Assembly: GCA_963851265.1 (NCBI GenBank) | Contig: CAWKNZ010000002.1 | Coordinates: forward strand, 608,001-672,000 | From: an uncultured Gemmatimonadales bacterium | GTDB lineage: Bacteria; Gemmatimonadota; Gemmatimonadetes; Gemmatimonadales; Gemmatimonadaceae | Reading direction: 5' to 3' | Length of the DNA stretch: 64,000 bases | Shown: one piece after another, positions 1,564-62,821 of the stretch | How positions within the stretch are numbered: the first letter of the stretch is position 1 | How the letters are laid out: every line of letters begins with the position of its first letter | Made by a program: the position numbers and the translations under genes | Notes under the pieces: generated by a model | Told to the model about the DNA's origin: nothing | The model's input: the letters and a program-made list of their open reading frames with translations, nothing else | The model's database searches: none

Positions 1564-2621
1564 ACGATCACCATCGCGTCGCCATAGGAGTAGAACCGGT
1601 AGCCCTCCCGCACGGCTTCCGCGTACGCCCGCATCGTCAACTCGTACCCCGCGAGGGCCGCGACGAGCATGAGCAGCGTCGAGCGGGGCAGGTGGAAGTT
1701 GGTCACCAGCCGGTCGACCGCGCGGAACGCGTACCCCGGCCGGATGAACAGGCGCGTGTCGGCCGCGCCCGCGCGCACGACGCCGTCCGGCGCGGCCGCG
1801 CTCTCGAGCGTGCGCGCCGAGGTGGTGCCTAACGCCCACGCGGCCCCGCCGCCGGCGCGCGCGGCGTTCACGGCCGCCGCGCTCGCCGCGGGCACGTCGT
1901 ACCACTCCTCGTGCATCACGTGCTCGGCCGGGTCCTCGACCTCGACGGGCTTGAACGTGCCCGCGCCCACGTGCAGCACCACGTCGGCGCGCGCGACCCC
2001 ACGCGCCGCCACCGCCGCGAGCACCTCGGGCGTGACGTGCAGCCCCGCGGTGGGCGCGGCGACCGAGCCCGGCTCGCGCGCGTAGACCGTCTGGTAGCGC
2101 TCCGCATCGGCGGCGTCGTCGGCGCGCTGGATGTAGGGCGGCAGCGGGACGCGGCCGTGGCGCGCGATGGCGCCGGCGACGTCTCCGCCGCCCACGTGCA
2201 GGCGCACGACGCGCGTGCGCCGCTCGGGGAGCACGGCGAGCACCTCGACCGCGAAGTCGTCAGCGACCTGCAGTCGCCGGCCGGGCTTGAGCTTGCCGCC
2301 CGGGCTGACCATCGCCTCGTACGCGTCGGGGCCGTACGGGCCGGCGGGGTCGAGCGCGCGCAGCAGCAGCACCTCGCCGCGCGCGCCGTTGTCGCGCGTG
2401 CCGAGCAGGCGCGCGCGGAACACGCGCGTGGTGTTGAGGACGAGCACGTCGCCGGCGCGCATGAGCGAAGGCAGATCGGCGAACGTGCGGTGTGCGAGCG
2501 TCCCGGCGCCGCGGTCGAGGACCATGAGGCGGCTCGCGTCGCGCCGCGCGAGCGGGGCCTGGGCGATCAACTCGGGCGGGAGATCGAAGTCGTAGTCGGC
2601 GGTGCGGGAGCCGGCGGTCAT
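1560..2621 (-). CDS. queA: S-adenosylmethionine:tRNA ribosyltransferase-isomerase
   Basis: [42 protein letters not shown] motifs. Confidence 0.97.
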
Positions 2622-2707
2622 GGCGCGCAAGTTACCGGGTCGGGCGAGCCACCGACCGCGCGCCGCCCGTATTGTGCGCGGCGGCGGCGGGACGTAGCGT
2701 GGGCGGC

Positions 2708-3646
2708 ATGTCGGCCGCGGTCGTTCCCGTCTCCGTCCATGCGGCGCCCGCTGCTCACGAACCGCCCGCGCCGTCGGACGCCCGTCTTCACGCCGCGGGG
2801 GTCGCGGACGTGTGCGTGACCTGTGGGCAGCCCGCGGGCGCGGCATTCTGTCCGCACTGCGGCGAGCGGCGTGCGTCGGACCACGCGTACACTCTCCACG
2901 CGCTCGCGGCAGACGTCTGGGACCACGTGACGCCCGCCGACGGGCGCACGGTTCGCTCGCTCTGGACCCTGGTCCGTCATCCGGGCGCGCTCACGGTGGC
3001 GTACATGCGGGGCGTGCGTCGGCCGTACCTCGCGCCGCTCGGCGTCTTCCTCTTCGTGAACACGGCGTACTTCGTGTACGTCGGCGTGACGCACCAGCGC
3101 ATCTTCAACACGCCGCTCCAACTGCAACTGACGAGTCAGCCGTACTCCGCACTCGCGACGCGGCTCGTCACCGCGCGACTCGCGGCGCGGCACGTCTCGT
3201 ACGCGGTCTACGCCTCGCGGTACGACGCCGTCACCGACACGCAGTCCAGAACGCTCATCGCGGCGATGGTCCCCGGGTTCGCGCTGCTCGTCGCGTTGGT
3301 CTCGGTCCGCCGCCGTCGTGGGGCGCTTCACCATCTGGCGTTCAGCTTCCACGCGCTCGCGATGCTGCTCGTGGTGGTGATGGGCTTCACGCTGCTGGTC
3401 GGGTTCCCGGTGGCGTACGTGGCGGCGGCGCTGCACCGGCGCGCCGAGTGGGCCGGCAGCGACGTCATCGTGTCGTCCATCTTCGCGTTGCTCTTCGGGG
3501 CGTGGCTCGCCGTCGGGTTGCGTCGCGCCTACGGCGACGGGCGGGTCGCGGCGACATTCAAGGCGATCCTCCTCGCGAGCGGGGTCCTGCTCCTGCTCGG
3601 CGGCTACCGCCTGCTGCTCTTCTTCACGACGTTCTGGGCCACGTGA
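2708..3646 (+). CDS. DUF3667-like membrane protein with N-terminal zinc ribbon
   Basis: CxxC...FCPHCGE zinc ribbon, TLVRHPGALTVAYMRGVRRPYLAP motif, several hydrophobic helices. Confidence 0.75.
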   Translation: MSAAVVPVSVHAAPAAHEPPAPSDARLHAAGVADVCVTCGQPAGAAFCPHCGERRASDHAYTLHALAADVWDHVTPADGRTVRSLWTLVRHPGALTVAYMRGVRRPYLAPLGVFLFVNTAYFVYVGVTHQRIFNTPLQLQLTSQPYSALATRLVTARLAARHVSYAVYASRYDAVTDTQSRTLIAAMVPGFALLVALVSVRRRRGALHHLAFSFHALAMLLVVVMGFTLLVGFPVAYVAAALHRRAEWAGSDVIVSSIFALLFGAWLAVGLRRAYGDGRVAATFKAILLASGVLLLLGGYRLLLFFTTFWAT

Positions 3647-3682
3647 CGCCGAGCGCGGGTGCCGAGCCCCGCGCCCATCCGC

Positions 3683-60417: not shown

Positions 60418-60446
60418 CCGCACGCACCGCCTAACGGGAGCCTGGG

Positions 60447-61319
60447 ATGGCGAAAGGCCGGGAGCTGAAGGGGCGCATCAAGTCCGTCGAGAACACGCGC
60501 AAGATCACGCGCACGATGGAGATGGTCGCCACGTCGAAGATGAAGCGGGCGCAGGACCGCGTGGTCGCCGCGCGCCCGTACGCGGCCGCGCTCGGCGAGG
60601 TGATGTCGCGGCTGTATTCGCCCGAGCTGGCCGAGCGTTTCCCGCTGCTGCGTCAGCCGGGGCGCGTGGAGCGGGCGGCGGTGCTGCTCATCACGGGCAA
60701 CCGCGGGCTCGCGGGCGGCTTCAACACGAACCTCATCCGCGAGGCGCGCACGCGCCTCGCGGAGTTGGAGAAGGGCGGGGCAACCGTCGAACTCCACGTG
60801 GCCGGGCGCAAGGGAATCGGCTACTTCCGCTACGTCGGGCGCGCGCTGGCGTCGGAGCGCACCGACCTCGGCGACCGCCCGAGTGCGGCGGACGCGGCGT
60901 CGCTCGTCGACGGGCTGATGGATCGGTTCCGGACGGGTGCGCTCGACGCCGTGTACGTGATCTACGCGAAGTTCAACTCCGCGCTCTCGACGCCGCCGAC
61001 GACGGTGCAGATCCTCCCGGTCGAGCCGCCGCCGGCGTCCGACCGCTCGGGGCGTCAGCACGACTACATCCTCGCGCCGTCGCCCGAGGCGATCCTCTCC
61101 GAGCTGCTGCCGAGCTACGTGCGCAACACCGTGTACCGCGCGCTGGCGGAGAGCACGGCCGCGTTCTACGGGTCGCAGCGCACGGCGATGAAGAGCGCGA
61201 CCGACAACGCCGGCGACATCCTGAACGGGCTGAAGCGCACGTTCAACCGCGCGCGCCAGGCGCAGATCACGCAGGAGATCGCGGAGATCGTCGGCGGCGC
61301 GAGCGCGCTGCAGGGGTAA
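60447..61319 (+). CDS. atpG: ATP synthase F1 subunit gamma
   Basis: [43 protein letters not shown]. Confidence 0.98.
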
Positions 61320-61387
61320 CCGCACACACGTTAGGCGCTGCGCTCGGGACGACGAGCCGGGCGCACCACTTCCACATAGAGCATCCC

Positions 61388-62821
61388 ATGGCCACCGCCG
61401 TCGCAACCCACCAAATCGGCAAGGTCGTGCAGGTCATCGGCCCGGTCCTCGACGTCGCGTTCGAGGCCGAGCACCTGCCCGAGATCTACAACGCGCTGCG
61501 CATCGAGGGCACGGCGCCCGACGGCGAGCGCATCGACGTCACGGCCGAGGTGCAGCAGCACGTCGGGCGCAACCAGGTGCGTGCGGTCGCGATGTCGAGC
61601 ACCGACGCCGTGGTGCGCGGCATGGACGTCGTGGACACGGGCGCGCCGATCACGGTGCCCGTCGGCGCGCCGGCGTTAGGCCGCATCCTCAACGTGCTCG
61701 GCGAGCCGGTGGACAACGGCGCGCCGATCCCGGCCGACGCCGTGCGGTGGCCGATCCACCGCGGGCGCCCGGAGTTCGTCGACCTCGAGCCGAAGACCGA
61801 GATCTTCGAGACGGGCATCAAGGTCATCGACCTGGTCGCGCCGTTCGTGAAGGGCGGAAAGATCGGGCTCTTCGGCGGCGCGGGCGTCGGCAAGACGGTC
61901 ATCATCCAGGAGCTCATCAACAACGTCGCGAAGGGGCACGGCGGCAAGAGCGTGTTCTGCGGCGTGGGGGAGCGCACGCGCGAGGGCAACGACCTGTACC
62001 TCGAGTTCCAGGAGGCGGGGATCCTCGACAACGTGGCGCTGATCTACGGGCAGATGAACGAGCCGCCGGGCGCGCGGCTGCGCGTGGGGCTCGCCGGGCT
62101 CACGGTCGCCGAGTACTTCCGCGACGAGGAGCACTCGGACGTGCTCGTGTTCATCGACAATATCTTCCGTTTCACGCAGGCCGGGTCGGAAGTGTCGGCG
62201 CTGCTGGGCCGCATGCCGAGCGCGGTGGGGTACCAGCCGACGCTGGCCACCGAGATGGGCGACCTGCAGGAGCGCATCACGTCGACGAAGAACGGGTCGA
62301 TCACGTCGGTGCAGGCGATCTACGTGCCGGCGGACGACATCACCGACCCGGCTCCGGCGACGGCGTTCGCGCACCTCGACGCGACGGTCGTGCTCTCGCG
62401 CGCGATCACCGAACTCGGGATCTACCCCGCGGTCGACCCGCTCGCCTCCACGAGCCGCATTCTCGACGCGCAGTACATCGGCGAGCGGCACTACCGGGTC
62501 GCGACCGAGGTGCAGCGGATCCTGCAGCGCTACCGCGAGCTGCAGGACATCATCGCGATCCTCGGCATGGACGAGCTGTCGGAAGACGACAAGCGCATCG
62601 TCGCGCGTGCCCGCCGCATCCAGCGCTTCATGTCGCAGCCGTTCGCGGTCGCGGAGCAGTTCACCGGCATCCCGGGCAAGTACGTCAAGCTGGACGAGAC
62701 GATCGGGTCGTTCGAGCGCCTCACGCAGGGGGAGTTCGACAACCTGCCCGAGCAGGCGTTCTTCATGGCGGGCGGCGTCGACGACGTGATCGCCAACGCC
62801 GAGCGGCTGACGAAGGGCTGA
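61388..62821 (+). CDS. atpD: ATP synthase F1 subunit beta
   Basis: [22 protein letters not shown]. Confidence 0.98.

Follow-up and report, generated by a model that had tools for sequence, protein, structure and literature searches.

A GTTAGGC word repeated throughout a Gemmatimonadaceae genome matches the local attC core and is surrounded by a halo of low silent-site A+T

A short word, GTTAGGC preceded mostly by C or T, recurs throughout the DNA of an uncultured Gemmatimonadales bacterium, and the 64,000-nucleotide stretch analyzed here (the window, G000:C2:608,001-672,000, where G000 denotes the whole 4.6-Mb genome of 73% GC) contains 15 true sites. An earlier reading of the letters alone, hereafter the original prediction, had described an iterated heptamer in the window; it overlooked both the identity of the word with the core of integron attC sites and a surrounding halo, a local drop of A+T at silent sites. 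The word acts at the DNA level, is exact, non-polar and unmethylated as far as published, and carries a symmetric footprint that is specific to exchanges between strong (S; C or G) and weak (W; A or T) bases. Our preferred reading, to which we give a probability of about 0.5, is that (C/T)GTTAGGC is a self-driving tag for uptake or recombination and gives rise to short tracts of GC-biased conversion; the data are compatible alike with an uptake step or a recombination step.

Genes were called with our own codon-model caller (3,877 genes in G000, 89% coding). GTTAGGC occurs 1,762 times in this genome, where 96 copies are expected from an order-2 and 127 from an order-3 Markov model. The excess shrinks to 1.7x at order 4 and 1.0x at order 5, but these high orders are uninformative because the word itself supplies most of its sub-words (1,762 of 2,470 TTAG). 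Five within-gene synonymous shuffles gave 58-79 coding copies against 1,291 in the genome, and a codon-context null trained without the word gave 10 expected against 1,274 (118x). Under the same null, single changes within the 7-mer reached 0.3-3.5x only, and the preceding base was graded (C 147x, T 80x, A 26x, G 21x). The flanks are otherwise uninformative, C preceding 79% and T 14% of the sites.

The 1,762 sites comprise 1,017 sense, 274 antisense, 197 overlapping stop codons and 274 intergenic ones. As many as 993 of the 1,298 TTA codons stand in G-TTA-GGC. The tripeptide bias is small (observed/expected, O/E, 0.97-1.18 for Leu-Gly preceded by Pro, Thr, Ala or Ser). The fraction of usable places that are filled is similar on the two strands, 18-25% for xCG-Leu-Gly and 26% (168/648) for G-CCT-AAC-G, so the signal resides in the DNA, as had been proposed. 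Close pairs are depleted (46 gaps <200 bp vs 130 expected), and density is higher between convergent genes than elsewhere (11.9 vs ~3.8 per 10 kb). When 562 orthologues were compared with the related genome G004, 115 of 180 G000 sites were retained and G004 added 180 of its own, where synonymous control words were retained at 13-44%. Placement in core genes, as described in the original prediction, is not the general pattern: filling climbs from 5% to 28% with the GC content of third codon positions (GC3) of the gene, and few usable places (3/41) are occupied around the ribosomal clusters.

Because such a climb with GC3 is odd for an AT-rich codon, we measured silent-site composition in G000 as A+T at 4-fold sites by distance to the nearest site, with 12 bp around the word excluded. 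From <50 bp to >6.4 kb, A+T rose through 3.2, 3.6, 4.3, 4.9, 5.9, 6.6, 7.3, 7.6 and 8.7%, with a decay length of 597 ± 54 bp and a drop in all 32 codon contexts; around three control words it was nearly flat. The halo is equal on the 5′ and 3′ sides, has its centre within tens of bases of the site and leaves a within-gene residual of -1.3 ± 0.11 points. After adjustment for context and gene position, O/E A+T was 0.46 within 100 bp (sense 0.40, antisense 0.56, stop 0.57, intergenic 0.55), and it was 0.53 for sites outside the scored gene, meaning that the halo crosses gene borders. Intergenic A+T was likewise 22.4% near and 27.2% far from sites. No halo was found in G000 around TTA outside the word, around ATA/AGA or around CG-TTG-GGC, and the dependence of the near/far ratio on the preceding base was weak and noisy (~0.45 for C and T, 0.56 for A, 0.69 for G). 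The halo is a new observation.

A paired test that compares filled with empty Ala/Pro/Ser/Thr-Leu-Gly places of the same gene gave a logit of -0.46 ± 0.04 in G000; of the 346 genes scored, 231 had lower and 104 had higher A+T. The other genomes were partly sampled (80-940 kb each); the logit was -0.65 ± 0.12 in G004 (72 genes), -0.65 ± 0.13 in G237 (16 genes) and -0.17 ± 0.09 in four pooled genomes (20 genes). In G000/G004 orthologues, C/G divergence is almost constant with distance from the sites (0.286 near, 0.313 far), whereas A+T climbs from 3.4% to 8.5% and from 2.0% to 5.9%; transitions and transversions both drop near sites. In each genome, A+T tracks chiefly the sites of that genome itself (-0.80 vs -0.27 and -1.02 vs -0.42). 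The whole A+T distribution shifts, its median going from 2.6% up to 7.1%, and contains no AT-rich subpopulation; the shift persists after stratification by protein identity and by C/G divergence. Together with the own-site tracking, this speaks against imported AT-rich patches. A two-state estimate from the two genomes has S>W changes halved and W>S changes up 20-34% near sites in three site classes, the latter rise amounting to 1-2 standard errors per class, and this is the pattern of a fixation bias.

The sites of the window are listed below, with positions numbered within it; all are exact matches unless stated otherwise, and the gene names (queA, ruvA, tyrS, PBP1A, mpg, kbl, PAS kinase and others) are those that the original prediction assigned from sequence only.

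1827..1834, minus strand: CGTTAGGC in the queA-like gene (1560-2621), GCG-TTA-GGC (Ala-Leu-Gly)
6626..6633, minus strand: CGTTAGGC antisense to the PAS kinase gene (5292-6839), CCT-AAC (Pro-Asn)
9573..9580, minus strand: CGTTAGGC in the ruvA-like gene (9231-9839), GCG-TTA-GGC
14525..14532, plus strand: CGTTAGGC in gene 14263-15189, GCG-TTA-GGC
17899..17906, plus strand: CGTTAGGC antisense to the tyrS-like gene (17773-19086), GGC-CTA-ACG
20454..20461, plus strand: CGTTAGGC in the PBP1A-like gene (19124-21490), ACG-TTA-GGC
22395..22402, plus strand: CGTTAGGC between called genes
25425..25432, minus strand: CGTTAGGC in gene 25341-26030, GCG-TTA-GGC
28916..28923, minus strand: one-mismatch variant CGTTAGGT, GCG-TTA-GGT, core inexact (sequence match)
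35954..35961, plus strand: CGTTAGGC in the mpg-like gene (35545-36327), CCG-TTA-GGC
39433..39440, minus strand: one-mismatch variant CGTTAGGA, source of the TAG stop of the kbl-like gene (sequence match)
39891..39898, minus strand: CGTTAGGC in the kbl-like gene (39435-40658), GCG-TTA-GGC
40998..41005, plus strand: CGTTAGGC between called genes
53595..53602, plus strand: TGTTAGGC, intergenic, a true site (exact match, and the codon-context grading of the preceding base)
60429..60436, minus strand: CGTTAGGC in the spacer 5′ of gene 60447
61329..61336, plus strand: CGTTAGGC in the spacer 5′ of atpD
61674..61681, plus strand: CGTTAGGC in atpD (61388-62821), GCG-TTA-GGC
46192..49454, plus strand: 23S and 5S rRNA genes, zero exact sites (motif scan)

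All 16 coordinates that had been given for the heptamer CGTTAGG/CCTAACG are correct, with eight copies per strand and CGTTAGGC in 14 of the 16, and so are the frames described (xCG-TTA-GGx in nine genes, CTA in tyrS, CCT-AAC in the PAS kinase); one of the remaining copies is a TAG stop and four lie between called genes. The heptamer as a unit needs revision, since the core consists of the seven bases GTTAGGC, which follow a graded base (C>T>>A,G), and the copies at 28917 and 39434 are one-mismatch variants. Among three near-matches reported earlier, the one at 53595 (TGTTAGGC) is a true site and those at 336 and 49475 are not. The records closest to the atpD gene are from Gemmatimonadaceae, and four relatives of this gene (L043, L047, L053 and L054) carry the word or a one-base variant at the position matching 61674..61681.

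The core consensus of attC sites is GTTRRRY. Word-poor genomes of the order hold few copies, clustered ~550 bp apart, and the attC hairpins in their arrays start with GCCTAAC and end with CGTTAGGC. Across three arrays of two such genomes, 67 of 80 R-box matches were CGTTAGGC (35) or TGTTAGGC (32); since both strands were counted for each of the two attC arms, these figures hold for the pooled composition alone. The same two preceding bases, C and T, are allowed in attC boxes and in genome-wide copies. The word is the R-box core of attC sites in this order. G000 has cassette arrays of its own on C6 and C10, where ~10 of 15 paired candidates are attC-like. The attC architecture (inverted boxes 40-140 bp apart, hairpin, array) was seen in no copy of the window and in these ~10 array sites only within G000.

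The array at L435 (G000:C10:186,001-206,000, continuing to 214,900) is rich in toxin-antitoxin-like pairs. It also includes two identical copies of what we take to be an IS110-family element with terminal inverted repeats at attC arms, and presumably two IS481-like copies.

At least 400 copies of YGTTAGGC (Y, C or T) were counted by hand in ~85 of 301 genomes of the family Gemmatimonadaceae, most others having tens; the highest count was 8,443 in 6.1 Mb, and density reaches ~1.4 per kb. Eight unpublished genomes (G011, G051, G097, G246, G261, G283, G361 and G388) are counted in the family denominators, and G011 also in the rich/poor tests of IntI and of the Eco57I-like methyltransferase given below; the claims are independent of them. 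The word-rich state is mostly uniform per genus, the exception being genus g56 with six rich and four poor members. Outside the family, the word was found in a few genomes of two sister families, and outside the order it exceeded its own control in 0 of 45 genomes. A screen for dialect words in other Gemmatimonadota, covering loci of at least 13 kb, returned candidates that proved to be local tandem repeats (L063, L056 and L038) or an ordinary coding word (L058). The first of these loci has intergenic GGTTAG-based tandem 8-mers in inverted clusters (L063:1971-2065, 7313-7357 and 18744-18760), and L038 and L056 have different 7-8-mer tandem arrays. Read mapping (shares 0.17 and 0.05) provided no strain-level information.

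The word is also found on mobile DNA. The 1.1-Mb plasmid NZ_CP007129.1 of Gemmatirosa kalamazoonensis carries 855 YGTTAGGC (0.77 per kb) against 25 for the control. A viral scan for two close word copies gave 119 stretches, 80 of them with flanks, and seven stretches of >4 kb hold at least eight sites. Three phage-like records, which were found via the word, contain 55, 49 and 24 copies against 12, 2 and 19 for controls. The first (G320, L475), with 55 sites in 45.6 kb, has genes for terminase, portal and head and is a complete tailed-phage record; the second (G321, L456) has an integrase (49 sites in 41 kb) and one weak link to a Gemmatimonadaceae host. Both have ~1.2 copies per kb and the same C/T preference before the word, which may help assign phages to Gemmatimonadaceae hosts.

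Under the reading that we prefer, the word would be read by a sequence-specific protein that is present in some Gemmatimonadales lineages and absent in others, and DNA bearing it would be preferentially taken up and/or recombined into the chromosome. In short recombination tracts with the word at their centre, such DNA would be the favoured donor; repeated tracts would raise the copy number by molecular drive, as modelled for the uptake signal sequences (USS) of Pasteurellaceae and the DNA uptake sequences (DUS) of Neisseriaceae, and would leave GC-biased gene conversion as the halo. USS drive requires no fitness benefit, and uptake peaks are centred on USS where fragments are shorter than USS spacing (PMC7811141). 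HIP1, the iterated palindrome of cyanobacteria, is described as boosting transformation, partly at the recombination step (bioRxiv 2024.09.10.611283; PMC13756078), and homologous recombination, linked to ComEC, is reported across the soil populations of a study with Gemmatimonadetes among its taxa (PMC7305173). More weakly, we infer that the word either derives from the integron attC R box or is common to both systems. A bolder version, which we regard as speculative and rather improbable, takes the word for a cassette core turned general DNA tag. Having evolved for the capture of attC cassettes from short soil DNA, a receptor or recombination factor would favour the same eight bases in the DNA of kin, each copy would be a GC-conversion hot spot, and the tag would spread by drive via chromosome, plasmids and phages, resembling PRDM9 motifs and yet gaining copies.

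Several observations weigh against the tag reading. The paired test showed no halo in G056 (+0.10 ± 0.14, 35 genes) or in G001 and G002 together (-0.05 ± 0.12, 30 genes), and no A+T drop in G193 (5 genes) or G012 (9 genes); A+T in G056 is 3.4-4.0% out to 1.5 kb, near the G000 floor, which may mask a halo. The small size of the W>S rise given above belongs here, as does the correlational nature of the evidence from which the causal role of the word in the halo is inferred. Intragenic DUS of the Neisseria type had no halo (+0.5 ± 0.9 points in 142 genes of metagenome contigs, within-gene figures alone being used since a plain open reading frame (ORF) finder inflates A+T in high-GC DNA), so the halo is no general mark of uptake tags. 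Inverted terminator pairs are few, unlike in USS: 19 pairs lie <60 bp apart genome-wide, of which four are outward-facing and three inward-facing inverted (7 of 19). Part of the conserved core holds few copies of the word, and density on the plasmid and the phage-like contigs is host-like; both observations suit an in-cell reader as well or better. The carriers' natural competence is predicted from gene content, and none of 12 reader candidates tested separates word-rich from word-poor genomes.

Among the proteins considered, ComEC was found in 79 of 80 genomes and DprA in 78 of 80, equally in word-poor ones and with no rich/poor split, and the comEC gene order is common to both. G000 has type IV pilins and ComEA-like proteins; no ComP domain was found among 12 pilin-region proteins. 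The best candidate, a PilX-like family, occurs in 38 of the 39 rich genomes and in 17 of the 41 poor ones, among them all four poor members of g56; its skew could reflect kinship. A 660-aa PilX-like protein (26/39 rich, 24/41 poor) and a 107-aa ComEA-like protein (15 of 80 genomes, no rich/poor link) were rejected, as were the UDG, GIY-YIG and DUF559 families, which had no link with the word (five genomes each).

The rival that survives best, though we consider it doubtful, invokes an in-cell chromosome-binding or repair-loading protein that would cut C/G-to-T/A damage (deamination, oxidation) or speed its repair over ~600 bp, with sites selected for that or for nucleoid structure. It would fit a symmetric halo in which S-to-W transitions and transversions are both covered and C/G changes are untouched, the presence of the word on plasmid and phage-like contigs, and the avoidance of close pairs. 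The 118x excess, however, would demand strong selection per site, and W>S changes are up near sites in all three classes, weak as this signal is. NucS was found in 0 of 5 genomes, the DUF559, GIY-YIG and UDG families showed no link, and eight relatives have no wide exclusion zone around parS.

It is less probable still, and in our view improbable, that the halo is not caused by the word, tracts under stronger GC pressure or recombination gaining or keeping the word, or motif-free, AT-richer DNA being imported. All halo evidence is correlational, filling climbs with gene GC3, and sites present in one genome only are somewhat more diverged (C/G 0.318-0.349 vs 0.294-0.306). Against this stand the shift of the whole distribution, also within strata and with no AT-rich subpopulation, the tracking of each genome's own sites and the centring within tens of bases.

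We think it quite unlikely that the integron integrase itself reads chromosomal GTTAGGC, at attG-like or junction-resolution points, and so makes hot spots and drive. The exact match to local attC R boxes, preceding C/T included, would suit such a reading, and chromosomal integrases are described as acting on transformation-imported single-stranded DNA (PMC12614218). Yet IntI does not track the word, since 6 of the 11 rich genomes and 19 of the 30 poor ones have a hit above the threshold, and no stand-alone IntI N-terminal domain was found in five rich genomes. The word is moreover all-or-none, other GTTRRRY boxes not being enriched (0.3-2.4x). The intI gene of G000 is interrupted (L434:2951-6230, on C6) by a ~2-kb insert with a serine-recombinase-like ORF on the opposite strand.

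A methyltransferase or other modification that marks GCCTAAC, with a methyl-guided process building the word as in the HIP1 model (PMC4390886), is very improbable; the methylation-site option had been part of the original prediction. In its favour, the 7-base core is sharp and a weak trend of the same kind is seen around HIP1 on one Nostoc plasmid. The one recognisable DNA methyltransferase of G000 is Eco57I-like and lies beside an SNF2 helicase. This gene is a persistent core gene, found in 38 of 41 Gemmatimonadales genomes, rich or poor, and a quick tree (28 of 30 rows) interleaves the two; no C5 methyltransferase was found in five rich genomes. The 2014 single-molecule real-time (SMRT) data do not fully exclude m5C or non-methyl modifications. 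G. kalamazoonensis bears the word, as its plasmid count shows, yet its SMRT methylome consists of RGATCY, ATGCAC and CCAGN7TCA only (PMC3974934), which makes methylation unlikely. The helicase and the 1,141-aa methyltransferase genes adjoin at L114:5718-11512 (G000:C7:579,717-585,511).

An oriented signal of the Chi or KOPS type, which the original prediction had rightly argued against, or a translational effect of the rare TTA codon is largely refuted: most copies are sense TTA (993) and the sense-site halo is the deepest (0.40), but the halo is symmetric, strands are filled equally, other TTA codons have no halo, and after correction for gene direction the copies on either side of dif (candidate at C2:1,368,958) show no polarity (intergenic 29 vs 29 to the left, 6 vs 7 to the right).

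The likeness to DUS and HIP1 that had been proposed is fair but incomplete, the word working like both and yet failing tested features of each family; it is a real feature. As with USS and DUS, the receptor of the latter being ComP, it is a non-palindromic exact word on both strands at up to ~1.4 per kb. It is written at permissive gene places, absent from the rRNA genes of the window and denser between convergent genes, with codon-independent excess, conservation above synonymous controls and competence genes present. Unlike them, it belongs to another phylum, is another word of 7-8 bases only, forms few terminator hairpins, is not scarce in acquired DNA (plasmid and phage-like contigs), is patchy within the family and one genus, and equals the attC core; DUS had no GC halo here. 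The word shares with HIP1 (GCGATCGC) its hyper-abundance and lack of polarity. On the Nostoc plasmid NC_003276.1 (L410-L428), silent A+T was 57.9% at <60 bp and 68.9% at >600 bp from HIP1, with a weak within-gene trend of -2.3 ± 1.1 points. HIP1 is conserved beyond codon needs (PMC5861425). It is, however, a methylated palindrome, whereas the word is non-palindromic and unreported as methylated in G. kalamazoonensis.

The eight terminal bases of this order's attC are CGTTAGGC and, for the other arm, TGTTAGGC, whereas the copies spread over the genome are solitary boxes that have neither hairpin nor cassette. By analogy, Chi and PRDM9 hot spots also join a short motif to a local recombination-like footprint on composition. 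Chi is polar and one-sided and KOPS is polar, unlike the non-polar word with its two-sided halo. PRDM9 motifs erode but the word accumulates, so the carrier must be the donor. A link between PRDM9 and GC is cited in PMC4866539.

Hyper-abundant bacterial words are few (DUS/USS, HIP1, Chi, KOPS), and none was found in the literature for this abundant soil phylum. Searches on the word, on iterated or uptake motifs in Gemmatimonadota, on DUS with attC and on motif-centred GC conversion returned no description of the word or halo, subscription journals being largely uncovered and supplementary k-mer tables possibly mentioning the word. The role of GC-biased gene conversion in bacterial GC is disputed, correlations being weak and mixed (PMC4866539). 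Thousands of mapped sites per genome, gained and lost between sister genomes, shift silent GC across a distance that has been measured, so that the question can be tested directly. Since a cultured carrier exists, G. kalamazoonensis, tests of uptake, pull-down and mutation accumulation are possible. The word may also aid transformation of a phylum with few genetic tools, and its identity with attC would tie integron cassette traffic to genome-wide sequence evolution.

Some further observations concern the replicon and the window. The XerD arm of the dif candidate differs from the word, and silent-site GC is lowest around dif and among conserved core genes (G000:C2 ~1,000,000-1,600,000). A 45-kb desert at G000:C1:182,876-227,962 has 0 sites despite 66 usable places and holds gidA-parA-parB-mnmE. 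Exclusion from the origin or parS as a rule was rejected, eight relatives having no wide parS gap (1.8-4.9 mean spacings) and a depletion confined to 1 kb (4 vs 12.5 sites). Canonical parS was not found in G000, G001 and G004, and is present in 29 of 40 rich genomes. The 23S-5S rRNA genes at 46192-49454 have no 16S match within the window; G. kalamazoonensis likewise has a split rrn set (PMC3974934). The boundaries of two long ORFs, 36288-38786 and 26036-29260, rest solely on our own gene caller, and the latter (1,074 aa), with a response-regulator-like start, may be a fusion or two genes.

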